The notes under the pieces are model-generated. The model saw nothing but the letters and a program-made list of their open reading frames with translations, did no database searches and was not told the DNA's origin. From Acidobacteriaceae bacterium (GTDB lineage: Bacteria; Acidobacteriota; Terriglobia; Terriglobales; Acidobacteriaceae): 40,890 nt of DNA. The position numbers and the translations under genes were made by a program. How positions within the stretch are numbered: the first letter of the stretch is position 1; every line of letters begins with the position of its first letter. The stretch is taken from contig PNAR01000205.1 in NCBI GenBank assembly GCA_003169715.1, forward strand, positions 1-40,890, in the 5' to 3' direction. Shown here in pieces: positions 1,986 to 39,836 of the stretch.

Positions 1986-4829
1986 ATGCCGCCAGTGTCA
2001 CCACAGTTCTATTACGCTATTGGTCGTATTACCTCCGTAATGTGCACCAAATTGCCCTTACCCATTAACCTGAAGTGGCAATCGGAATTCCGGGAGCCAC
2101 CTATCCTCACCGCCGAAACAACTAAAGGGACCCGCACCGCGTCTGCCCGTGCGTTCATCCATAGCCTCAACATTCTTATTAAGTATGTGCGCCTGTACGG
2201 TTTCGACCATAAGCGCACTACCGGCCAATTTGAAATTACATGGAACGAGTTGCAGCAAGGTCTTCCCAAAGATCGGGATGGAAACTTTCTGCTTGGAGTT
2301 GCGGAAAATCGCCTTCTCCTGGATGGCATTGCTCTCGAGTCCGGACAAGCCGAGCAAAGTTTCGCGAAGTTGCTGACCACCGCCGGCCTGGCGAGCATTC
2401 ATTTTTCCAACCACGTTACCGTTGATGATTTCGCGCAGCTCGTAAAAGCATTCTCGACGGCTGGTTCCAAAGCCCAGGACATCACCAAACAAATCAAAGA
2501 CACTTTTGGAAATAATAAACAGGCCAGCATCAGGATCAACGAAGTGAAGTTCGTTGCGGCCGATCCCGCGACTGGGGATGTCAGTATCGCCGCCCAAATT
2601 GCGGCGCAGTCTCTTGGCCCTGAATTCAAGCAATGGCTAAATGATCCGCAAAAGCTCATGCAGCTAATCGCCGCAGCCGAAGGCGCTCACAACGCAGGCG
2701 CTGGCGGGGGTGGAGGCGGCACCGGACCTAGCATGCCTCCCGGAAGTTTTCCCAACCCATCTCCCGGAGAGCAATCATCCGGCGGCGGAGGTGGTACGGG
2801 GACGGGTACCGGCGGTAACTGGAGCGGCGGCGTAGTTCCCTTGCAAGAGGAAGAAGTCATTCAAGCGATTCGCCTGCTGACCAGGTTCGGCGAAGTGGGC
2901 AGCGATCCTTCCGCGAAAACCGACGCCCTACAGGGCGAAATCAGCAAGACCGACGCCAACACCAAAATTAATCTACAGCTGTTGCTGCAAAGCCTGGCCT
3001 CCACGGTTCCCGCGCAACAGACCGACACGCCTCTTCTAATGAAGGCTGCCGAACACATGGCAATTCGCTTCGCCCTGGAACGCTTCCAAAAAGGTGAAGT
3101 GAAAGTCAACGCGGTCCACCAGATGCTCGAGCACATGAGCCGGCAGATGGACAGCTTGCGCCAGATCCTGCGATTGCAGGAAGACAAAATGAGCAAGGCT
3201 GGCATCCTGGTGGAATCCCACGCCGACATTCTTGATCGAATGTTCTGGGCCGAGGTTCCCGACGCTGGCAAGAAAAGCGTGCTGCTGTCCGACGAAGCGC
3301 CCTGCGTCCCCGCTCGTAACGTACGACAATTCGTAGAGCTCCTGCTCGACCGGGACGAGAAAGAAACAGCTTCGGACATTCTGCGGAACTATGCATCGTG
3401 CCTGAACGCCAAAGATCCTGAGCCTCGCCGCAAGATTGCCACCGGTATCGGTCAACTCGCCGATCTCTTTGCCAGTTCGGATGAAAAACTGCTGGGGGCT
3501 ACTGTTCGCGCCCTCGCCGACGCTCTGGTTAAGGAACCGGATTCGGAGATGCAGAGCCTCTTGAGCGCGGCCTTCGTCCGCATGAGTTCTGAAGCAAGCG
3601 CACAAAAGCGCTATTCCGCGCTAAACGAAGTTTGTGACGCGATGGACACGGTCGCAAAACAGCGTCCTGTACTCGCCGATGATTTGCGTCCGCGCATCGG
3701 TATCGAAAATCGCTTGCCTGAATTTCTCGAAGAAGCGCTCCGTCTGCCGCAAGTTCCGCCTGAGTTGGTCATGGTATTGCGCCGCACATCGCAGGCTGCC
3801 ATTGAGCATCTCGCCGATCGCTTTTTCCGCTGCATGCGTCGTGATGAATGCGACCGCATGGTGAATCTCGTTAAAGATCTGGGACCTCCGGGAATGGCGC
3901 ACTTGCGCGAGATGTTGCGCATGGGGCCGCCACGTCAGGCCTCGTCAGTGATTGGTTTGCTCAGCCGCCTCGATGTTCCAACATTGTTGGAACTGCTGCC
4001 AACCCGCCTGCCCGAGTGGAATCGCTTTTATCACGATTTGGTCGTCCGCCAGATTGCGTATGGCGCCGCTCCAGATCGCGGGCGCTCACTGCTGGAGCTT
4101 CTGGAAATTCTCGATCCGCTGGTGTTGCCACAGGCCCTCGATGAGATTGGCATGAGTGGCGACAGATCGGCAGTTCCGCCGCTGATCGTGATGGCGGAGT
4201 CCGGAGAAACCGAAGGCCGCTCTCCATTGCTTCAACTAAAAGCTGTGGAATCTCTGGGAAGACTGCGTGAAGGCGACTCGATCACGGTTCTTCGAAATCT
4301 GCTCGAAGCGAAGAAAATGTGGAAGTGGATCCATCCGCGCGAATTGAGAATTGCGGCCGCGCAAGCGCTCACCAAGATTGACCCGACTTATAGCAGCAAA
4401 ATTATGGCGGAAAGCGGCTTGGAGCCTGCGGAGCTCGCGGTGGCAGCCCTTGACGCCGCCCCAGCCTGCCCGTGGGTACGGCAGCGGCGATATGAACGCA
4501 TTGCGCTGAGAAAACCGATTTCCGCGACCATTAGCAGTTCATGGGGAAAATCGGGCATCTCGGTTCACGAACTCAGTCTGGGCGGCGGGATGGGCACCAA
4601 GCAAGACAATCTCCGTGTCGGCTCGGAAGCTTCTCTCGATATGAAGGTTGGCATGAGCCACATCCGCGCCGACGTATTGTTGCGCCGCGCCAGGGTGAAT
4701 GAAGTAGGATTCGAAATCGTAAATACCGATCTCGAAAGCCGCTATCGCCTGCGCCGCATTCTGCTCGAAACCATGGGCAACACTCCCGACGAAAAGAAAG
4801 AGGAGTGGAGCGATATCCGGAAGAGCTGA
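1986..4829 (+). CDS. Large multidomain protein: unknown N-terminal domain, Gly-rich linker, HEAT-like helical repeats, C-terminal PilZ (c-di-GMP-binding) domain
   Basis: 947-aa ORF. The C-terminus has the PilZ signature RQRRYERIAL (RxxxR) followed by HELSLGGGMG (D/NxSxxG-like). HEAT/PBS-lyase-like repeats include LLQLKAVESLGRLREGDSITVLRNLLE and RELRIAAAQALTKIDP. A low-complexity GAGGGGGGTGPS...GGGGGTGTGTGG linker lies at about nt 2690-2830. The start is uncertain; an alternative ATG is at 2040. Confidence 0.75.
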   Translation: MPPVSPQFYYAIGRITSVMCTKLPLPINLKWQSEFREPPILTAETTKGTRTASARAFIHSLNILIKYVRLYGFDHKRTTGQFEITWNELQQGLPKDRDGNFLLGVAENRLLLDGIALESGQAEQSFAKLLTTAGLASIHFSNHVTVDDFAQLVKAFSTAGSKAQDITKQIKDTFGNNKQASIRINEVKFVAADPATGDVSIAAQIAAQSLGPEFKQWLNDPQKLMQLIAAAEGAHNAGAGGGGGGTGPSMPPGSFPNPSPGEQSSGGGGGTGTGTGGNWSGGVVPLQEEEVIQAIRLLTRFGEVGSDPSAKTDALQGEISKTDANTKINLQLLLQSLASTVPAQQTDTPLLMKAAEHMAIRFALERFQKGEVKVNAVHQMLEHMSRQMDSLRQILRLQEDKMSKAGILVESHADILDRMFWAEVPDAGKKSVLLSDEAPCVPARNVRQFVELLLDRDEKETASDILRNYASCLNAKDPEPRRKIATGIGQLADLFASSDEKLLGATVRALADALVKEPDSEMQSLLSAAFVRMSSEASAQKRYSALNEVCDAMDTVAKQRPVLADDLRPRIGIENRLPEFLEEALRLPQVPPELVMVLRRTSQAAIEHLADRFFRCMRRDECDRMVNLVKDLGPPGMAHLREMLRMGPPRQASSVIGLLSRLDVPTLLELLPTRLPEWNRFYHDLVVRQIAYGAAPDRGRSLLELLEILDPLVLPQALDEIGMSGDRSAVPPLIVMAESGETEGRSPLLQLKAVESLGRLREGDSITVLRNLLEAKKMWKWIHPRELRIAAAQALTKIDPTYSSKIMAESGLEPAELAVAALDAAPACPWVRQRRYERIALRKPISATISSSWGKSGISVHELSLGGGMGTKQDNLRVGSEASLDMKVGMSHIRADVLLRRARVNEVGFEIVNTDLESRYRLRRILLETMGNTPDEKKEEWSDIRKS

Positions 4830-32583: not shown

Positions 32584-32835
32584 CTAGACTTCGGCCTGGT
32601 CAATGTAGCACCATCGCCAATCCTCGCCCGGCTCAAAGGATCGAATAATCGGGTGCTTCGTCTTATGAAAATGCTTAGTGGCGTGCTTGTGAACGGAACT
32701 GTCACAGCAACCAACGTGCCCGCACTCGAGGCAAAGGCGCAGGTGTACCCAAGTGGCTCCGATTTTCAAGCAATCCTCGCATCCCTGCGCCGAAGGCGTT
32801 ACTTCGCGGATTGTGTTCAGGTGAGTGCAACTCAT
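32584..32835 (-). CDS. Stand-alone UBP-type zinc-finger protein
   Basis: MSCTHLNTIREV...CEDCLKIGATWVHLRLCLECGHVGCCDSSVHKHATKHFHKTKHPII carries the C/H spacing of zf-UBP domains. The ATG at 32835 has GGGGAGAAAA upstream; the track ORF starts at 32859. Confidence 0.75.
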   Translation of the reverse strand: MSCTHLNTIREVTPSAQGCEDCLKIGATWVHLRLCLECGHVGCCDSSVHKHATKHFHKTKHPIIRSFEPGEDWRWCYIDQAEV

Positions 32836-32950
32836 GATTTTCTCCCCATTAGAAACCACGTCGTTTCAAGAACATATTAGACCAGAGTTTCCGTAGGCTG
32901 GCGATATTCCCGCCTTAGCAATACAAAGCAATCCACTGGATGCGCTTGCG

Positions 32951-33010
32951 TTGACGCCTTTCCATGCACCTTCTATCCTTAAATAGAAGAGGTAGGTTCA
33001 GTGACAACCT
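32951..33010 (+). promoter_or_regulatory. Candidate sigma-70-type promoter with two palindromic operator candidates upstream of the FTR1 operon
   Basis: TTGACG (32951-32956), a 17-nt spacer, TATCCT (32974-32979). Palindrome P1 is CTTCTAT-ccttaa-ATAGAAG (32970-32989) and overlaps the -10 element. Palindrome P2 is AGGTT-cagtgac-AACCT (32994-33010), whose half-sites equal those of the DtxR/IdeR box but with a 7-nt rather than 5-nt spacer. Confidence 0.4.
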
Positions 33011-33057
33011 GCCGTTTGAGCAGGCTCGTTCGTTCGAGCCATGGAGAATCGGTTTAA

Positions 33058-34305
33058 ATGTTACAGGCATTCATCGTAACCTTGCGCGAGGGCGTCGAAG
33101 CTGCCCTGATCGTCGGCATCACGCTAGCCTACCTCACCAAGATAGGCCGGGCTGATCTTCGCAAATATGCCTACTGGGCTCTTGTTTCAGCATTTGTTGC
33201 CAGCATTGGCGTCGCCATCCTCCTTTCTCAGACGCATTTGAATGAGGACGTTTTCGAGGGCTGCGTCATGCTGGCGGCGGCAGCGTTTGTCGTCACCATG
33301 ATCATTTTCATGATGAAGACGGGACGCAAGCTCAAGGGAGAAATTGAAGGCAAACTTGGATCGCTCGCTGGCAAAGGCTCGGCGGTTGGAGTTTTCTTTT
33401 TCGTTTTCTTGATGGTGCTGCGCGAAGGCGCCGAAACAGTATTGATTCTGTCGGCAGTTTCACTGAACTCTACCGAGCTGATGAGCTTTCTGGGAACCCT
33501 CTCGGGCATTTTCGTGGCGGTGTTATTCGGAGTGATGTTCGTTAAGGGAAGTGTTCGCATCAATCTGCAAAAGTTCTTTCGCATTACCAGCGCCATTCTG
33601 TTTTTCGTCGCCGCCCAATTGCTGGTTTCCGGACTGCACGAGTTATCAGAGTACGGAGTGCTTCCCTCTTCCAAGCGCGAGATGGCTCTGATTGGCCCGA
33701 TCGTGCGCAACGATTTCTTTTTCGCGGTAACTATTCTCGCGTTGGCCGCGCTCATGGTTTTGTTGGAGGTGAAGCGCCGGCAACCTGCTTCACTTCCTTC
33801 ATCTGGTGCGGAGCGACGCAAAGCCGCTTGGAGCGCCCGCCGCGAGCAATGGTGGATGAGGTCGGTTTACGCCAGTTCGTTTGTTTTCATTCTGCTCATC
33901 ACTGCGGAGTTTGCTTATACGAAAAGCGTTAGCGCGCTTTCTCCGGCGACCGAAATTCATTTCACAAACGGTCAGGTAAGTATTCCGCTAGCTAAGGTTT
34001 CTGACGGCGACCTTCACCGTTTCGCCGCTCTCGAAAACGGTACGACGATTCGTTTCTGGCTGTACAAAAAACCCGACGGAAAGATCGCCACGGTTTTCGA
34101 CGCCTGCCAGATATGTGGCGGCGTTGGCTTTTACAAAAGCGCGAATGGAGTCGTTTGCAAGAACTGCGCTTCGCCAATTAATGGGCAATCCATCGGAACC
34201 AAGGGCGGTTGTAACCCCGTACCTCTCATCGCGCAGATGACATCGGATGCCGTCATCATCAAGGAGGCGGACATCGCGACCGGCATCAAGATGTTCCAAA
34301 AATAA
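33058..34305 (+). CDS. FTR1/EfeU-type iron permease fused to a DUF2318 (Cys-rich, FetA/Cj1660-like) domain
   Basis: Two REXXE motifs (REGVEA near the N-terminus, REGAET at about aa 122) in a 6-7 TM FTR1 core, then an extra TM. The C-terminal domain reads FDACQICGGVGFYKSANGVVCKNCASPINGQSIGTKGGCNPVPL, the CxxC...CxxC...GGCNP pattern of DUF2318. Confidence 0.8.
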   Translation: MLQAFIVTLREGVEAALIVGITLAYLTKIGRADLRKYAYWALVSAFVASIGVAILLSQTHLNEDVFEGCVMLAAAAFVVTMIIFMMKTGRKLKGEIEGKLGSLAGKGSAVGVFFFVFLMVLREGAETVLILSAVSLNSTELMSFLGTLSGIFVAVLFGVMFVKGSVRINLQKFFRITSAILFFVAAQLLVSGLHELSEYGVLPSSKREMALIGPIVRNDFFFAVTILALAALMVLLEVKRRQPASLPSSGAERRKAAWSARREQWWMRSVYASSFVFILLITAEFAYTKSVSALSPATEIHFTNGQVSIPLAKVSDGDLHRFAALENGTTIRFWLYKKPDGKIATVFDACQICGGVGFYKSANGVVCKNCASPINGQSIGTKGGCNPVPLIAQMTSDAVIIKEADIATGIKMFQK

Positions 34306-35567
34306 TGTTTGTTCGTCTCGTGTATGAATCGTTTCGGCGGCAGAAGCGAAGCAAACTGCTGGCTGGCGCCGCCATTGCTTTAGGCGTGACCGTAGCCACG
34401 GCAATGATTGCCGTTGCCACCGATGTAGGCGACAAAATCAATCGCGAACTGCGCAGTTACGGCGCAAATCTCGTCGTCACCCCCCAGGACGATACTTTGG
34501 ATGTTCAAATCGCCGGAATCAACCTCAAACCACCCAGCGACGGCGCTTACCTGGACGAGGCCGATCTTCCGAAAATCAAAGGCATGTTCTGGCGCAACAA
34601 TATCGTGGGTTTTGCGCCCGTGTTGCCGGTGACCGTCACGGTCAATAAAGGCACCGCAAAGAATGTCACTCTTGTTGGTACATACTTTGCGAAGCGATTG
34701 CGCTTTGGCAACGAGAATTTTGTAACGGGCGTGCGCACAACCTATCCATTGTGGAAAGTTCAAGGCTCATGGCCGGATGACGATTCCCGTGACGTATTGA
34801 TCGGCGAACAGTTGGCTGCGGCTCTGAGAGCAAAGCCCGGAGCGAAAATCAATATCGAGGGAGAGAATCTGCAAGTAACGGGCATTCTTTCAACAGGAAG
34901 CACGGAAGACAACGAAATCGTCGCACCCCTCTCCTTAGCGCAACAGATGCTGGGAAAGCCGGGTGTAGTCCGCAAGGTTTATGTCAGCGCCCTGACCAAG
35001 CCCGAAGACGCATTTGCCCGCCGCGATCCAAAGACACTCAGTCCTGATATGTACGACCGGTGGTATTGCTCTCCCTACGCCCAATCCATCGCCTTTCAGT
35101 TGCAGGAAGCGATTCCACATTCTCACGCCGAGCAAATTCGTCAGGTCGCTCAAACCGAGGGCACGATTCTGACGAGGATCAAAGGCTTGATGCTGCTGGT
35201 CACGCTGGCCGCCCTGTTTGCGTCCGCGCTGGCAGTTTCGGCAGCAATGGCGACAACCGTTTTTGAGCGACGCCGCGAAGTTGGGTTGATGAAGGCTCTT
35301 GGCGCCGGTGGGCTCGCAGTGGCTTCCTTCTTTTTCGCGGAAGCCGCATTATTAGCACTTCTTGGAGGCGCGGCAGGCTTCGCAGGCGGCTCGTTTCTGG
35401 CATACCACGCGGGGCGCTGGATATTCGATTCCCCAATCAACATTCAGCCAGTGCTGCTTCCGCTTATTCTGATTATCGCGGTGATTGTAACTTTTGCGGG
35501 TAGCGCTACCGCCATTCTCCGCGCCGTGAAGTTTGATCCGGTATATGCATTGCGCGGTGAAGGATGA
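34305..35567 (+). CDS. MacB-type (FtsX-family) ABC permease 1 with large periplasmic domain
   Basis: N-terminal TM (KLLAGAAIALGVTVATAMIAV), a periplasmic domain of about 250 aa, and a C-terminal FtsX 3-TM bundle (ERRREVGLMKALGAGG...LRAVKFDPVYALRGE). Its start overlaps the upstream stop (TAATG at 34303-34307). Confidence 0.85.
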   Translation: MFVRLVYESFRRQKRSKLLAGAAIALGVTVATAMIAVATDVGDKINRELRSYGANLVVTPQDDTLDVQIAGINLKPPSDGAYLDEADLPKIKGMFWRNNIVGFAPVLPVTVTVNKGTAKNVTLVGTYFAKRLRFGNENFVTGVRTTYPLWKVQGSWPDDDSRDVLIGEQLAAALRAKPGAKINIEGENLQVTGILSTGSTEDNEIVAPLSLAQQMLGKPGVVRKVYVSALTKPEDAFARRDPKTLSPDMYDRWYCSPYAQSIAFQLQEAIPHSHAEQIRQVAQTEGTILTRIKGLMLLVTLAALFASALAVSAAMATTVFERRREVGLMKALGAGGLAVASFFFAEAALLALLGGAAGFAGGSFLAYHAGRWIFDSPINIQPVLLPLILIIAVIVTFAGSATAILRAVKFDPVYALRGEG

Positions 35568-36715
35568 CGAAACCTCTACCAGGCGGCCGTGCAGGCGCGC
35601 AGCATACCTCAATGTTTTTCCGCATGCTGGTTCGGGCCGCGATTCTCCGTCGCGGCCGCGCGGCATCCGCTTTGCTGGCCATGATCGTCGCAGCGACCGT
35701 CACGACGGCATTGTTGAATCTTTTTGTGGATGTGCAATCTAAGCTGCGCAGAGAATTTCGGAATTACGGCGCCAATGTCGTCGTGATCGCGAAAGACGGA
35801 AAGACACTTCCTCCCGATGCTCTTGCTAAAGTCGAGGCGACGGTTGGCAGGGATCCCCGTGCGAAACAGAGCGTTGCGGTCCCCTTTGCTTACGTCGTGG
35901 CCCGAACCTCCAACGATCAGCCGGTTGTCGTCGCCGGCACCGATCTTTCTGCTGTCCGCAAGCTGAACAATTGGTGGTCAGTAACGGCATGGCCGAAGCA
36001 GCCCGAGGAAGCTCTCCTTGGTGTTCGAGCGTCGGCCATCGTAAATCCGCAGGGAAAGTCTTTCGATCTCACCTTCCACGGGCGCACGATTCATTTGACG
36101 CCCGCGGGCACTGTGGGCACGGGCGCGGACGAAGACAGTCGTATTTATGTATCATTGTCCGATTTCGAAGCTTGGACAGGCGTGCGGGCGTCAACAATCG
36201 AAGTGGATGTTTCCGGCCCGCCTGCTGATGTCAACGCAACGATCGCAAGACTCGCTCAGGTTTTGCCCGACGCCGATGTCCGGCCAGTACGGCAAATCGT
36301 GGAAGCCGAAGCTCGCGTGTTGGGAAAGACAAGGGCGACGTTGTTGGCGGCTTGTATTCTAGTCATCGCCACGGCCGCGCTGTGCGTTCTGGCAACGCTC
36401 ACCGGGTGGGTGCTTGACCGGCGCCGCGATTTCGCGATCATGAAGGCTCTCGGCGCATCGCAGCGGTTTATCAGTGGATTCTTCGCCGCCGAGGCTGCCT
36501 TTCTGGGGGCTTTTGGGGCATTGCTTGGCTTTGGTTTCGGAATCGGAATCGCGGCGTGGATTGGCAGAACTAACTTTCATGCGCCCGTAATGCCCCGATT
36601 CGAGCTGTTTCCAATTGTTTTGCTCGGGTGCATTCTGATTGCGCTGGTCTCCGCGATTGCGCCGATTTCCGCGCTGCGGCGAGTGCAGCCAGCTATGATC
36701 TTAAAAGGTGAATGA
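35564..36715 (+). CDS. MacB-type (FtsX-family) ABC permease 2
   Basis: Same architecture as permease 1 (DRRRDFAIMKALGASQ...LRRVQPAMILKGE). The ATG at 35564 overlaps the upstream stop (ATGA). The alternative ATG at 35612 (MFFRMLVRAAI) parallels the N-terminus of permease 1. Confidence 0.85.
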   Translation: MTKPLPGGRAGAQHTSMFFRMLVRAAILRRGRAASALLAMIVAATVTTALLNLFVDVQSKLRREFRNYGANVVVIAKDGKTLPPDALAKVEATVGRDPRAKQSVAVPFAYVVARTSNDQPVVVAGTDLSAVRKLNNWWSVTAWPKQPEEALLGVRASAIVNPQGKSFDLTFHGRTIHLTPAGTVGTGADEDSRIYVSLSDFEAWTGVRASTIEVDVSGPPADVNATIARLAQVLPDADVRPVRQIVEAEARVLGKTRATLLAACILVIATAALCVLATLTGWVLDRRRDFAIMKALGASQRFISGFFAAEAAFLGAFGALLGFGFGIGIAAWIGRTNFHAPVMPRFELFPIVLLGCILIALVSAIAPISALRRVQPAMILKGE

Positions 36716-36745: not shown

Positions 36746-37972
36746 TTGATTCAGCTCAAACATGTAAGCCGGTCATATCCAGCTCGAGCGGAAGCTGGAG
36801 GGGCTATTCGTGCGCTGGAGGACTTCTCACTCGCCGTTGCGCCGGGCGAGTGGATTGCAATCATGGGCCCGTCGGGATCGGGTAAATCAACGCTTGTGAA
36901 TCTGATCGGCTGCCTTGATCGTCCGACATCCGGTGAAATCTGGATTGACGACCAGAATGTGGCCAGCATCTCCGCGGGCAACTTGAACCGTGTACGCGCG
37001 GAAAAAATCGGATTCATTTTTCAACAGTTCCACCTGATTCCCTACCTCACGGCGGTTGAAAATGTGATGCTGGCGCAATACCTGCACAGCATGACGGACG
37101 AAGAAGAGGCGCTGACGGCTCTTGATCGGGTCGGCCTGAAAGATCGCGCGCATCACGTGCCGTCGCAGCTTTCCGGCGGCGAGCAGCAGCGCGTATGTAT
37201 TGCTCGGGCGCTGATCAACGATCCCAAAATTGTATTAGCCGACGAGCCTACCGGTAACCTCGACGCCGTCAACGAAGAGATTGTGCTTCGTCTCTTGCGC
37301 GAGTTGCATCGCAGCGGGCGCACCATCGTGATGGTCACGCACGATCCGGTAGTGGCACGATTGGCCGATCGCCGGATTGAGCTGCATCATGGCAAGATCG
37401 CCGCACAGGAAGTTTTTGCCATGGCGGATGAAGAGCAATTCGACGAGGTACTCGAGGAACTTTGGGCGCTCGAGGAAAATGGGCAAATCGCCGAAACCGG
37501 CCGCATGGAAGTTCACGGGGCTCTACCGGTGAGCATTGCCATCGAAAAGATGACCGCCCTGGGGCTGGTCACGACGAGCGTGCACAACGCTCCAATCCCT
37601 GCGTCTAAGCCTTTTATTAATCCGTGCCACGATGCTCTCAAGCCGACTGGCGTTTCCACCGGCGAAGGAAGCATGATTGTCGAGCTGACCCTTCGGGGTC
37701 GCCAGCGCGCCGCCGATGTAATTCGCCGTCACCGTCTTGCCGAACGCCTGTTTACTGATAGCCTGGCTCTCGATAGCGAATCGGAAATTGAGCAGCAAGC
37801 CTGCAAATTCGAGCACATACTTTCGCCAGAAGCTACCGACAAGATATGTACATTCCTGGGACATCCGCGCACATGCCCGCACGGGGCACTGATTCCACCG
37901 GGGCCGTGTTGCGGTCGAAACGTTGCGGAATTAGCCGGTACCTTCCGAGCCAAATCGGATCGCGTTAGCTAA
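36746..37972 (+). CDS. MacB/LolD-type ABC ATPase fused to a C-terminal DtxR/IdeR-like metal-dependent regulator module
   Basis: TTG start. Walker A GPSGSGKST, Q-loop FQQFHL, signature LSGGEQQRVCIARAL, Walker B VLADEPTGNLD, H-loop VTHD (aa 1-220). From aa 226 the sequence reads MADEEQFDEVLEELWALEENGQIAE...IEKMTALGLV...VIRRHRLAERLFTDSLALDSESEIEQQACKFEHILSPEATDKICTFLGHPRTCPHGALIP. This parallels DtxR RKHRLAERLLTDIIGLD...HDEACRWEHVMS. Confidence 0.85.
   Translation: MIQLKHVSRSYPARAEAGGAIRALEDFSLAVAPGEWIAIMGPSGSGKSTLVNLIGCLDRPTSGEIWIDDQNVASISAGNLNRVRAEKIGFIFQQFHLIPYLTAVENVMLAQYLHSMTDEEEALTALDRVGLKDRAHHVPSQLSGGEQQRVCIARALINDPKIVLADEPTGNLDAVNEEIVLRLLRELHRSGRTIVMVTHDPVVARLADRRIELHHGKIAAQEVFAMADEEQFDEVLEELWALEENGQIAETGRMEVHGALPVSIAIEKMTALGLVTTSVHNAPIPASKPFINPCHDALKPTGVSTGEGSMIVELTLRGRQRAADVIRRHRLAERLFTDSLALDSESEIEQQACKFEHILSPEATDKICTFLGHPRTCPHGALIPPGPCCGRNVAELAGTFRAKSDRVS
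37421..37915 (+). other. DtxR-like module (winged-helix-like segment plus metal-binding/dimerisation domain) within the ABC ATPase ORF, with a possible internal in-frame start
   Basis: An in-frame ATG at 37421 is preceded by AGGAAG (37407-37412) at 8-nt spacing. No stop codon separates it from the ATPase domain. Confidence 0.6.
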
Positions 37973-37973
37973 C

Positions 37974-38798
37974 GTGACGACCCCTCGCCGCCCTGCCATC
38001 GGAGTGTTCGACTCGGGCTTTGGTGGCCTTACAGTACTTAAAGCTTTACTTGAGCTTATCCCGCATTCGGATTACCTCTACTTCGGTGACACAGCCCGCC
38101 TTCCTTACGGCTCGAAGTCTGCCGAAACCGTCGCGAGGTACGCCATCGAAGCAACACGTTACCTCGAGCAGCATGGCGCTCAACTATTAGTTGTCGCCTG
38201 CAACACGGCGACCGCACTCGCTCTGGACAAGATCGAAGCGCGGTCCGGGGTTCCAGTAGTTGGGGTAATAGAACCCGGTGCGGAAAGCGCCTCCAAAGAG
38301 AGTAAGAACCGGAAGGTGGTCGTCATCGGCACTGAAGCCACCGTCAGCAGCCACGCTTACCGCAGAGCACTTGAGCAACGGGGAATCCAGGCGAAAGAGA
38401 AAGCCTGCCCTTTGCTGGTTCCGTTGGTTGAAGAAGGTTGGATTGACCACAATGTGACCGAGCAAATCGCTCGCATCTATCTCAACGAAGCGTTTGCCGA
38501 TGGATTTGAAAATGGAGATACCCTCGTTCTGGGATGCACGCACTATCCGCTGATAAGACGCGTGCTTCGGAAAGTGGCTCCTGATCACGTCGCGATTGTT
38601 GACTCGGCGCAATCCACGGCCCAAGTCGTGAAAGATATGCTGGGAAAATCCCTCTCTGAGGCAACCGAGGACGAGCGCCGCAAAATGCCGCGGCTGAAGT
38701 TTTTTGCTACGGATTCAGTGGAGAAATTCCGAACTCTTGGAGCGCGTTTCCTGGGACGTGAAATCGAGGACGTTCACCACGTGGATCTGAAGGAATAG
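37974..38798 (+). CDS. murI: Glutamate racemase
   Basis: IGVFDSGFGGLTVLKAL, LLVVACNTAT and LVLGCTHYPL (the two catalytic Cys motifs). GTG start. Confidence 0.9.
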   Translation: MTTPRRPAIGVFDSGFGGLTVLKALLELIPHSDYLYFGDTARLPYGSKSAETVARYAIEATRYLEQHGAQLLVVACNTATALALDKIEARSGVPVVGVIEPGAESASKESKNRKVVVIGTEATVSSHAYRRALEQRGIQAKEKACPLLVPLVEEGWIDHNVTEQIARIYLNEAFADGFENGDTLVLGCTHYPLIRRVLRKVAPDHVAIVDSAQSTAQVVKDMLGKSLSEATEDERRKMPRLKFFATDSVEKFRTLGARFLGREIEDVHHVDLKE

Positions 38799-38822: not shown

Positions 38823-39836
38823 TCAGTACAGATTGAAACTGACTTCGACGCTGATCTCTACCGCGACCGGTTTTCCATCCTTTATGGCAGGTTTAAATCT
38901 CCATTGCTTTACCGCTTCAATGGCTTTTTCGTCCAGACCGAGGCCGACACTGCGAGAAACTGTTATGTTGCGCGGAAGCCCATCGGGACCGACGATTAAA
39001 GAAACTATCGAAGTTCCTGAATACTTCGCTTTGCGGGCCTCTTCAGAATACTCAGGCGAAGGATCGTAAAGGACGCTGGGCGCGCTCACTCCTCCTCCAA
39101 CGTGATATGCGCCTCCACCAGTGCCACCGCCATGTCCTTCTCCGACTCCGGGCCCGGAGCCGACGCCCACTCCGCCCAAGGAACCGGAACCAATTCCACC
39201 GCCGGATCCTGTTCCGTTGGAAGGAGGACCGGAGGGCAGCTTAGACATTGGAATTCCCAGATTGGGCAAGTTATTCATCGCCATCTTGATCTGCGGAGGA
39301 ACAACAACTGTAGGCACAACCGGAAGCTTCGGATGATCGTTCCGAACTATAACCGCCGGAGGCGTGATCTGCTCCATTGCCAGCTTGGGAAGTTTTCCTT
39401 TTGACGCCTGGAATTTGTCTCTGTCGCCACCCCCGCCACCGCCACCGGCAAGAGTCTTGGAGGGCTTCAGAACCGGAATGTCGTCAGGAGCGATGATTGT
39501 CGTCACTACGGATTGCTTCGGGGTCTCCTTCACTATCCTGCGAGCCCAAAGAGTGGCTCCAACGATAAGCGCAAACAAAATGATATGGGTTATGGTCGAA
39601 CCAAGCGCGCCATTTTTCTTGTTGTCGTAAAAGCCCCAGATGTCTTTAACCGGAATCGGCTTCGAGGTCAGTACAAGCGGTGGCAGTTTTTTGGGAAAAA
39701 AGAAATCATTCAAATTCTGAGTGAGAGACTTGAACAGCGATTGCTCAAAAGTGTTCGGAGGCAGAAGAAAACTCGGCACCGGAGTGGAAGCCGAGGAGAC
39801 GCTGGCGGGTTGCGATTCGATATCGAGGCTTGCCAT
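38823..39836 (-). CDS. TonB-family energy transducer-like protein with Gly-rich spacer
   Basis: C-terminal TonB_C fold motif PEYSEEARKAKYSGTSIVSLIVGPDGLPRNITVSRSVGLGLDEKAIEAVKQWRFKPAIKDGKPV. A single TM (ITHIILFALIVGATLWA) lies at about aa 82-98, and the spacers are Gly-rich. Confidence 0.8.
   Translation of the reverse strand: MASLDIESQPASVSSASTPVPSFLLPPNTFEQSLFKSLTQNLNDFFFPKKLPPLVLTSKPIPVKDIWGFYDNKKNGALGSTITHIILFALIVGATLWARRIVKETPKQSVVTTIIAPDDIPVLKPSKTLAGGGGGGGDRDKFQASKGKLPKLAMEQITPPAVIVRNDHPKLPVVPTVVVPPQIKMAMNNLPNLGIPMSKLPSGPPSNGTGSGGGIGSGSLGGVGVGSGPGVGEGHGGGTGGGAYHVGGGVSAPSVLYDPSPEYSEEARKAKYSGTSIVSLIVGPDGLPRNITVSRSVGLGLDEKAIEAVKQWRFKPAIKDGKPVAVEISVEVSFNLY

Follow-up and report, generated by a model that had tools for sequence, protein, structure and literature searches.

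What does a DtxR-like module do when it is built into the ATPase of a transporter? This question is raised by a 40,890-nucleotide (nt) stretch of DNA from a soil Acidobacteriaceae bacterium (contig PNAR01000205.1, assembly GCA_003169715.1), the whole of which we refer to as the window. On its forward strand, positions 36746 to 37972 hold an open reading frame (ORF) of 408 amino acids (aa), with a TTG start and a single uninterrupted frame, that joins an ATP-binding cassette (ABC) ATPase to a DtxR-like module and closes an iron-uptake operon. An initial annotation of the window had recognized a DtxR/IdeR-like module fused to a complete ABC ATPase and had offered two readings of it: a sensor that shuts off the ATPase by trans-inhibition, and a free repressor made from a nested internal start. 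Our analysis bears out the fusion, on which Pfam, phmmer, and the continuous ORF agree. We give an even chance to the reading in which the DtxR-type module is an allosteric sensor of Fe(II), possibly Mn(II), that feeds back on a FetD-type ATPase.

The first part of the protein (aa 1 to 223, positions 36746 to 37414) is a nucleotide-binding domain (NBD), identified by Pfam, NCBIfam, AlphaFold2 (AF2) modeling, and Foldseek as a FetD orthologue of the MacB/LolD/FtsE type. The Pfam family ABC_tran (PF00005) matches aa 24 to 169 (E = 7.7e-37), and NCBIfam groups the N-terminal half with the MacB, LolD, FtsE, and DevA ATPases. Its motifs are intact (Walker A GPSGSGKS at 41 to 48, Q-loop Q93, LSGGEQQR at 142 to 149, Walker B with E167, and H199), and the catalytic motifs are invariant in an alignment of 99 sequences from two clades of fusion proteins. 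We used the same 99 sequences for our second AF2 model, in which the mean predicted local distance difference test (pLDDT) score is 79.8 and the predicted template modeling score (pTM) is 0.59; over most of the NBD, pLDDT is approximately 85 to 95. Our statements from Foldseek searches of the PDB rest on the 50 best matches listed. Among these, the best for the NBD were MJ0796, MacB, LolD, FtsE, YbbA, and YtrE, and the NBD of Escherichia coli MacB superposes on that of the window with a template modeling (TM) score of 0.92, a root-mean-square deviation (rmsd) of 1.6 Å, and 45% identity. None of the 50 combines an NBD with a DtxR-like domain.

The remainder of the protein belongs to the DtxR family. 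Fe_dep_repr_C (PF02742) matches aa 315 to 384 in Pfam (E = 1.6e-24), and a phmmer search with aa 226 to 408 against PDB sequences retrieved IdeR (E = 1e-14) and DtxR (E = 3e-10). The initial annotation had raised the possibility that the fusion arose from a stop codon or frameshift lost in assembly. We scanned one genome per species for relatives, found at least 353, and used the best 80, which are Acidobacteriota by record title, except for one labeled Dormiibacterota, and mostly Terriglobales. In these 80 genomes, the ABC and DtxR parts adjoin in one frame wherever the contig extends, and stop-to-stop frames span at least 404 codons, save at contig-truncated loci and at one locus with 354 codons (L010). 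With a continuous frame in all complete loci, an assembly artifact or frameshift is ruled out as the origin of the fusion. The gene is split only in two loci on metagenome contigs (L001 and L002); because the adjoining permease genes are also broken there, we read these splits as indel or frameshift errors.

Database searches gave the same picture. The best 120 matches to the full protein all carry both PF00005 and PF02742 and are 384 to 416 aa long (119 of the 120 fall within 406 to 416), and they are named only "ATP-binding cassette domain-containing protein" or "putative ABC transport system ATP-binding protein." A second fusion clade comprises more than 100 clusters of proteins of approximately 360 aa that are about 50% identical to the window protein; it belongs to Acidobacteriota, with one record from Candidatus Polarisedimenticolia. 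The fusion is genuine and ancient, and at least 73 genomes of related species have it.

In the second AF2 model, the last strand of the NBD (aa 217 to 223) and helix 1 of the module (aa 229 to 244) are separated by a tether of approximately five residues. This limit and the sequence define a linker at aa 224 to 228 that contains Met226 (junction region, positions 37407 to 37429). A divergent winged-helix-like N-domain follows (aa 229 to 314, positions 37430 to 37687), which we delimited with this model, an overlay on IdeR, and alignment to DtxR, IdeR, and MntR. Helix 1, which carries DEVLEELW with E234 and E237, is followed by an ill-defined stretch (245 to 261), a helix at the place of the former recognition helix (262 to 271, PVSIAIEKM), and two wing strands (275 to 279 and 310 to 314). 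The initial annotation held that some 30 extra residues replace the wing; instead, the insert (aa 280 to 309, positions 37583 to 37672) sits between the two wing strands, and it is found in the Terriglobales clade only (pLDDT 46 to 53 for residues 281 to 310). Next comes the metal-binding and dimerization domain (aa 315 to 390, positions 37688 to 37915), recognized by PF02742 and by alignment to PDB entries of IdeR and DtxR, with a long helix at 316 to 338 and further helices at 345 to 356 and 361 to 370. The protein ends in a variable, weakly conserved tail (aa 391 to 408 plus the stop codon, positions 37916 to 37972; pLDDT 43 to 49).

We also built a model from close orthologues only. It is poor overall (pLDDT 51), and the helix-2 region (245 to 261) is of low confidence in both models; nevertheless, it overlays two-domain IdeR chains with TM scores of 0.75 to 0.79, normalized to targets of 138 to 142 residues. 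By overlay as well as by the phmmer matches, the module appears to have the IdeR-like fold on which the initial annotation depended. We found no FeoA/SH3-like third domain in the form of a PF04023 match in either the window protein or the module.

The ligands that DtxR-family proteins use to bind metal are kept in the module. In a protein alignment of 74 Terriglobales orthologues (the 354-codon locus was left out), E234, E237, H329, E333, E349, C353, E356, H357, C377, and H379 are invariant. Across the 99 sequences of the two-clade alignment, C353 and H357 remain invariant, E356 is glutamate save for one aspartate, and E349 has a single exception; in clade 2, H329 is histidine or glutamine, and E234 is replaced by histidine in 5 of the 72 sequences counted. 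The Cys-Glu-His site noticed in the initial annotation is therefore invariant in Terriglobales and nearly so across both clades, and the residue numbers given for H329, E333, E349, C353, E356, H357, and M226 were all right.

By alignment, E234, C353, E356, and H357 correspond to M10, C102, E105, and H106 of DtxR and make up a putative site 1; in the phmmer alignments to PDB entries, C353 falls on C102 and H329 on H79. The composition of site 1 matches that of MntR from Porphyromonas gingivalis (PgMntR), where D19, C108, E111, and H112 bind both Mn(II) and Fe(II) (PMC4805248). The initial annotation paired H329 and E333 with H79 and E83 of DtxR. Although H329 does align with H79, these two residues are better seen as half of a site of the MtsR/SloR type, completed by C377 and H379, which had been missed. 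We assign this putative site 2 because the CPHG motif of the window protein aligns with C123-P-H125-G of SloR and ScaR (SloR 123 to 126), so that H329, E333, C377, and H379 reproduce the H76, E80, C123, and H125 that form the primary site of MtsR and SloR (PMC9253540). As judged from these alignments, both putative metal sites are complete and conserved.

Which metal would fill these sites cannot be read from the cysteine. The initial annotation took a Cys ligand as a mark of Fe/Co rather than Mn response, which is too strong a claim: the Mn-responsive regulators PgMntR, SloR, and MtsR also have Cys ligands (PMC4805248, PMC9253540), and we dropped the Cys ligand as a guide to Fe or Mn specificity for this reason. 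The genomic contexts described below, beside FTR1 and FeoB, argue for Fe(II).

The end of the metal-binding domain (aa 368 to 390, positions 37847 to 37915) carries a further pattern, C368-x4-H373-x3-C377-P-H379-x8-C388-C389, that is invariant in both fusion clades. The CPHG...CC core recurs in most stand-alone relatives of the module. C368, H373, and the Cys-Cys pair C388-C389 have no counterpart in DtxR or IdeR; they may be ligands of a Zn or Fe-S site.

These features suggest a mechanism. The C-terminal approximately 180 residues would be a DtxR-family metal-sensing and dimerization module that was recruited as the regulatory domain of a FetD ATPase, which itself would power the MacB-like (type VII) ABC part of an iron-uptake system built on FTR1 and DUF2318. 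With two copies of the ATPase beneath heterodimeric FtsX-type permeases, two DtxR-like modules would be brought together and could pair as DtxR family proteins do. Rising cytoplasmic Fe(II), or possibly Mn(II), would fill E234/C353/E356/H357 and H329/E333/C377/H379, and the metal-filled modules would take up the metal-bound conformation of the dimer. Through the five-residue tether, the NBDs would then be held in a geometry unfit for ATP-driven closure, and uptake would be turned off within seconds. This would be feedback inhibition, or trans-inhibition, as in MetN, ModC, and MalK, with another sensor fold, and transcription of the operon would fall to a separate regulator, in most relatives a Fur-like one.

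The same domain could also act without sensing metal levels, as a constitutive dimerization clamp or dock held together by a structural metal such as Zn. PF02742 is, after all, the dimerization domain of the family, several DtxR-family proteins dimerize in metal-free form (PMC4805248), and the cluster of C368, H373, C377, H379, C388, and C389 resembles a structural Zn site. The surface of the N-domain is conserved within the clade, which fits a protein partner. A clamp, however, would hardly account for the ligand-for-ligand retention of both regulatory sites of DtxR, PgMntR, MtsR, and SloR in clades that are only about 50% identical, and the FetD orthologue encoded on E. coli plasmids works with no clamp at all. 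We therefore regard a purely structural role as unlikely.

If the module were a repressor of the ordinary kind, it should bind DNA, and several observations make this unlikely. The helix-turn-helix (HTH) signature of DtxR proteins (PF01325) gave no match at E ≤ 10 in the module or in stand-alone members of its subfamily. The initial annotation had noted that the recognition-helix region is only partly conserved, and the helix is indeed degenerate; Q43 and R50 of DtxR are replaced in the alignment by Ile and Ala. On average, 4 residues of the N-domain are basic and 17 acidic in Terriglobales, compared with approximately 6 and 12 in the second clade. At the same time, the helix-3 region, HGALPVSIAxEKM, hardly varies among the 74 Terriglobales orthologues. 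Given this near-invariance, a cognate operator should be conserved as well; instead, the boxes in the promoters differ, as follows.

The operon that ends with the fusion gene begins with an FTR1 permease gene, and we compared the region upstream of the FTR1 start in 63 orthologous loci. In the window, a candidate sigma-70-type promoter lies at positions 32951 to 32979 on the forward strand (-35 TTGACG at 32951 to 32956, a 17-nt spacer, and -10 TATCCT at 32974 to 32979), as judged by its match to the consensus. The pattern TTGAC[GC]-N16-18-TAT[CGT]CT was present in all five loci with a listed match and can be made out 5' of the FTR1 start in the majority of the 63. Just 3' of the -10 hexamer, an inverted repeat, GGTAGGTT-N7-AACCTGCC (32991 to 33013, forward strand), has the core AGGTT (32994 to 32998) and AACCT (33006 to 33010). 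When folded, the repeat forms a stem of 8 bp (the 82-nt leader as a whole has z = -2.3), and the AGGTT-N7-AACCT palindrome is not kept in the nearest relatives of the window (L003 to L005); it is either a clade-specific operator or a hairpin of the 5' untranslated region. We rejected a DtxR-type operator in the region 32951 to 33010 on the grounds that AGGTT-N7-AACCT is unconserved and wrongly spaced; it may be a mere leader hairpin.

Among the 63 loci, the promoter is followed by a Fur-box-like sequence, TGAAATTGAAATTCATTTTCA, in 42, by TTGCAAC-N-GTTGCA in 16, and by neither in 5, including the window. By our own comparison, TGAAATTGAAATTCATTTTCA has 14 of 19 matches to the Fur consensus of E. 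coli. The near-palindromic Fur-box-like TTGAAATTGAAATTCATTTTCAA lies 2 to 9 nt past the -10 hexamer and approximately 30 to 60 nt upstream of the FTR1 start (L006 to L082), and the Fur-like box of the orthologues has no match anywhere in the window at up to three mismatches. Neither box is present in the window or in the relatives closest to it (L003, L004, L005, and L017), which implies at least two exchanges of the operator, with the promoter hexamers unchanged throughout. No DtxR/IdeR-type operator is shared across the 63 promoters.

Two further observations concern these upstream regions. A CRP/FNR-type palindrome, TGTGATGCAAATCACA (TGTGA-N6-TCACA with at most one mismatch), is present in 30 of the 63 loci and absent from the window; it lies approximately 60 to 90 nt upstream of the -35 hexamer (for example, in L037, L048, and L055) and suggests a second input to the operon, possibly linked to redox state or carbon. 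Divergent from the operon of the window, a gene on the reverse strand (32584 to 32859) encodes a 91-aa zf-UBP-type zinc-finger protein, and this gene occurs only in the sub-clade of the window (L003 to L005), the one that lost the Fur-like box.

The promoter data also bear on the idea of a transcription factor tethered to the transporter, in which the metal-loaded, full-length ATPase would bind DNA by its winged helix and repress the operon or other iron genes. This idea draws on the superposition of our model on IdeR domains 1 and 2, winged helix included, on the invariance of the helix-3 region within the clade, on the greater number of arginines kept by the corresponding helix of the second clade (consensus eRMRarG), and on the DtxR-like half-sites AGGTT and AACCT that follow the -10 hexamer in the window. 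Yet the domain that would have to contact DNA has no PF01325 signal, Ile and Ala at the Q43 and R50 positions, about 4 basic against 17 acidic residues, and a 30-residue insert in its wing. The half-sites are spaced by 7 nt and unconserved in the nearest relatives, and the orthologues have Fur-like or TTGCAAC boxes in their stead. We consider a tethered transcription factor extremely improbable.

Taken together, the conserved ligands, the tether of approximately five residues, the absence of an HTH signature, the acidic N-domain, and the lack of a shared DtxR operator make trans-inhibition by a built-in sensor the best-supported mechanism. The first of the two readings in the initial annotation thus gains support from the ligands, the tether, and the missing HTH, and we infer the mechanism from these. 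Several points weigh against it. That metal binding would inhibit rather than activate the ATPase is our guess by analogy. The relative placement of the domains in the AF2 model is uncertain, as its pTM indicates. The ABC systems for which trans-inhibition is known belong to the type I importers and move a substrate across the membrane, and DtxR-like genes beside transporter genes are also typical of ordinary repressors. Because the former recognition helix is invariant in Terriglobales, it must have some conserved partner, and DNA is formally among the candidates. The synonymous constraint just upstream of Met226, described below, is an extra layer that a sensor would not need. Finally, the logic of feedback on the MacB-type FetBCD ABC unit is indirect because the role of this unit in iron uptake is still unknown in the literature (PMC6083913, PMC10783030).

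The ATPase gene is the last of four in the operon, and this arrangement is kept in nearly all related loci whose contigs extend that far. The first gene (33058 to 34305, forward strand) encodes an FTR1/EfeU-type iron permease with a C-terminal, Cys-rich DUF2318 (FtrD-like/FetA-like) domain, as identified by Pfam (PF03239, E = 6.7e-38; PF10080, DUF2318, E = 1.1e-28) and NCBIfam (EfeU, E = 1.9e-45). In translation, the FTR1 part has two REXXE motifs, REGVE and REGAE. The DUF2318 part, 33% identical to FetA of an E. coli plasmid, contains CQIC-x13-CKNC-x14-C, matching the CxxC-x13-CxxC-x14/15-C motif described previously (PMC6083913). Two MacB-type ABC permease genes follow on the same strand. 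The first (34305 to 35567), FetB-like, combines a periplasmic core (PF12704, E = 1.7e-15) with a four-helix FtsX transmembrane domain (PF02687, E = 1.7e-12) and occupies the equivalent place at almost every orthologous locus to which the contig extends. The second (35564 to 36715), a FetC-like MacB/FtsX-type permease (PF02687, E = 6.7e-19), overlaps the stop codon of the first by 4 nt and is 31% identical, across 89% of its length, to an FtsX-like permease in the fet cluster of an E. coli plasmid. Three junctions overlap or nearly abut (34305, 35564 to 35567, and 37972 to 37974).

The NBD of the window protein (aa 2 to 222) is 54% identical to the 231-aa FetD of E. coli plasmids, compared with 41 to 47% for the MacB, LolD, and MJ0796 chains listed by Foldseek. 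As annotated, the E. coli plasmid cluster runs in the order FTR1, P19, an Fe-S-containing (DUF2318) protein, two permeases, the 231-aa ATPase, and TlpA. Judging by these similarities, the operon of the window is an iron-uptake system of the fetMP-fetABCDEF type with no P19 gene in the operon. It shares FTR1, DUF2318, two FtsX permeases, and FetD, in the same order, with the E. coli plasmids and with the P19/FTR1 system of Campylobacter jejuni (cj1658-1665), where fetM, fetA, fetB, fetC, and fetD are all needed for growth in low iron (PMC6083913, PMC10783030). The C. jejuni genes also have a Fur-type box upstream, as do most Terriglobales orthologues (PMC6083913). Whereas fetMP-fetABCDEF systems have P19/FetP and thioredoxin or FMN-binding genes, the window operon is without these, and its FTR1 part, unlike theirs, is EfeU-sized and fused to DUF2318. 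The FetD of E. coli ends at 231 aa, where the extension begins in the window; the latter adds 185 DtxR-like residues. We scanned the 31 larger ORFs of the window and found no P19/FetP, thioredoxin, FMN-binding, Fur, or second DtxR gene; those for P19/FetP and for thioredoxin or FMN-binding proteins may lie elsewhere in the genome.

The operon is not the only setting in which the module is found beside an iron transporter. We searched exhaustively for its subfamily against representatives at 50% identity. The subfamily has a signature of its own, made up of ExLExxW in helix 1, an acidic and variable recognition helix, RRHRLAERL, ACxFEH, and CPHGxxIPxGxCC. Most members are free proteins of approximately 210 to 260 aa, and all five that we scanned end in a FeoA domain. 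In the three informative loci (L085, 2808 to 3578; L086, 952 to 2256; L087, 1997 to 2764), the stand-alone gene is directly downstream of feoB, and thus the subfamily is repeatedly coupled to Fe(II) transporters. These proteins, approximately 250 aa long, share the signature of the window module; they differ from it in being free, FeoA-ended, and paired with FeoB, whereas the window module is fused to an ABC ATPase and has no FeoA domain.

Some individual stand-alone members have features of their own. In L085 and L087, the stand-alone member carries the only FeoA domain seen beside feoB in the available sequence. The gene in L086 (P0267, 952 to 2256), adjoining feoB, encodes a fusion of DtxR-like, FeoA, and FMN_bind domains; the Fet thioredoxins have their Gram-positive counterpart in FMN-binding genes (PMC6083913). 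Another protein (P0197) joins transketolase domains to DtxR-like and FeoA domains and could be an artifact of gene calling or assembly. In databases, the stand-alone members are labeled "DtxR family Mn-dependent transcriptional regulator."

With two putative metal sites per monomer at the membrane beside an iron permease, and with the sister subfamily similarly associated with FeoB, the module might instead be a cytoplasmic acceptor that takes over Fe(II) as it leaves the FTR1 permease and passes it along, as a metallochaperone would. We know of no DtxR-family member that acts as a chaperone, however, and the module is fused to the ATPase rather than to the permease that would pass the iron. 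In all characterized relatives, such sites are allosteric (PMC9253540, PMC4805248). A role as metal acceptor is therefore very improbable. A broader hypothesis, possible although we doubt it, is that the whole subfamily, marked by its ExLExxW helix 1, an acidic N-domain that is not an HTH, two metal sites, and the CPHG...CC motif, consists of transporter-bound cytoplasmic gauges of Fe(II) and not of transcription factors. Fe(II) uptake would then be gated post-translationally by members that are docked on FeoB through FeoA in many anaerobes and fused to FetD in Acidobacteriota, with an internally initiated free copy in Terriglobales perhaps providing a second, titratable layer.

Such a free copy is what the second reading in the initial annotation proposed. 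In Terriglobales, translation from the in-frame ATG at 37421 to 37423 (Met226) would also yield a free 183-aa DtxR-like regulator from within the ATPase gene. Its product would be a repressor or, more plausibly given the acidic N-domain, a heterodimer partner that tunes the ATPase-fused modules, which is compatible with a built-in sensor. The ATG and the Shine-Dalgarno (SD)-like AGGAAG (37407 to 37412) 8 nt upstream of it are indeed present. Met226 occurs in 74 of 74 Terriglobales orthologues, but this invariance is uninformative by itself because the whole stretch AMADEEQFDEVLEEL around it is conserved at the protein level. Met226 also aligns with residue 2 of DtxR, as would be expected for the relic start codon of an ancestral gene that once stood alone and was later fused. 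Elsewhere in the family the residue is missing: only 4 of 72 sequences of the second fusion clade have any Met near the junction, and P0153 and P0134 are without it, so the family works without this start.

The SD-like motif carries little weight. Similar cores precede 11 of the 170 internal in-frame ATGs of the window (6.5%), so that AGGAAG before Met226 is within chance expectation. Even at confident gene starts, an SD core (AGGA, GGAG, or GAGG) is found upstream of only 5 of 19, and the organism appears to rely little on SD pairing. Nor is mRNA structure weakened at codon 226.

Of the possible signals for internal initiation, only a synonymous-site constraint on two codons at the junction, no more than four codons upstream of the ATG, held up. 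E222 (37409 to 37411) is encoded by GAA in 67 of 69 sequences, and A225 (37418 to 37420) by GCC in 60 of 64. On a neighbor-joining tree, E222 underwent 2 synonymous changes, compared with a mean of 13.5 for Glu columns and 8 for the next-lowest, and A225 underwent 4, compared with a mean of 21.6 for Ala columns and 15 for the next-lowest. None of the other codons, out of approximately 300, is as constrained at synonymous sites as these two, and nucleotide-level selection therefore acts at the junction. Its direction is ambiguous. GAG at E222 would give a stronger SD sequence (AGGAGG) than the constrained GAA, so the constraint may maintain a moderate internal start or suppress one, and selection for or against internal initiation is equally possible.

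We considered the 181- to 183-aa "DtxR regulators" in metagenome catalogs as evidence of a free protein and rejected them. Most are on contigs of a few kb, and the cases that could be checked on long contigs (P0054 and P0009) are both among the broken genes, on error-prone contigs. In sum, the ATG and its upstream motif stand as the initial annotation described them, but the SD match is at chance level, mRNA structure shows no dip, and Met226 is confined to Terriglobales; we rate a nested gene as rather unlikely.

Other features of the window have less bearing on the module. The gene for glutamate racemase MurI (37974 to 38798, GTG start) begins 1 nt after the stop codon of the ATPase gene, with no SD sequence, and MurI lies downstream of the operon, at varying distance, at roughly half of the related loci. 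An unrelated cell-wall gene may thus be translationally coupled to the iron operon. Just downstream, the reverse strand (38823 to 39836) encodes a TonB-like protein whose Gly-rich linker is long, and 42 of the related loci have a homologue in the vicinity of the operon. An ORF of 947 aa (1986 to 4829, forward strand) has no Pfam match at E ≤ 1e-5, and an Rfam scan of the window gave no matches.

To our knowledge, a fused metalloregulator-type sensor that directly controls an ABC machine for transition-metal uptake is undescribed in the literature that we searched, in which we found nothing specific on NBD-DtxR fusions, FeoA-DtxR proteins, or FTR1 and DtxR in Acidobacteria. Trans-inhibition has so far been known for methionine, molybdate, and sugars. 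If the built-in sensor is real, iron would join this list, and the principle would reach beyond type I importers to MacB-type mechanotransmitters. An ATPase wired to a sensor would argue that FetBCD activity must track the metal status of the cytoplasm, in a FetMP/P19 system that is widespread and linked to virulence, and a metal-switchable ATPase would provide a biochemical handle on the FetBCD unit. The analysis also draws attention to a large DtxR-like subfamily, without the HTH signature and beside feoB, that appears to be misannotated as Mn-dependent transcriptional regulators. Fast shut-off of uptake would be ecologically plausible for Acidobacteria, which are abundant in soil and peat, under fluctuating Fe(II). 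The most promising leads are the question of the internal start and the feoB-linked sister subfamily.

Compared with the known families, the window module falls between two. It shares with DtxR, IdeR, and MntR the PF02742 domain and both characterized metal sites, and its model overlays IdeR domains 1 and 2. These regulators, however, are free proteins, whereas every complete locus has the module joined to an NBD; their N-domains have the HTH signature and basic residues, whereas that of the module has no signature and few basic residues; and they bind a palindromic operator in a metal-dependent way, whereas we found no cognate operator for the module in the 63 promoters. Many of them also have a FeoA/SH3 third domain, which the module lacks, while it has the extra invariant pair C388-C389. 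As a DtxR repressor, then, the module fails: it has no HTH signature, it has no operator, and it is not free.

With the regulatory domains of MetN (C2/NIL), ModC and MalK (TOBE-like), and FbpC, the module shares its place in the polypeptide, as an extra domain after a complete NBD. As in MetN, ModC, and MalK, it would be expected to pair beneath the NBD dimer, and it could bind the system's own cargo on the cytoplasmic side and lock the ATPase. Among the 50 best PDB matches listed, MetN chains are the only entries aligned over more than 320 columns, with a poor fit past the NBD (rmsd 10 to 12 Å). The sensor fold of those proteins is NIL/ACT or TOBE, whereas that of the module is DtxR/IdeR-like; they serve type I importers with a substrate-binding protein, whereas the partners here are MacB_PCD and FtsX permeases of type VII; and the ligand, unlike theirs, would be a transition-metal ion at Cys/His/Glu sites. 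The module therefore fails as a regulator of the MetN/ModC type as well, having another fold in another class of transporter. Plausibly, it works as the MetN and ModC regulators do, using the parts of DtxR.

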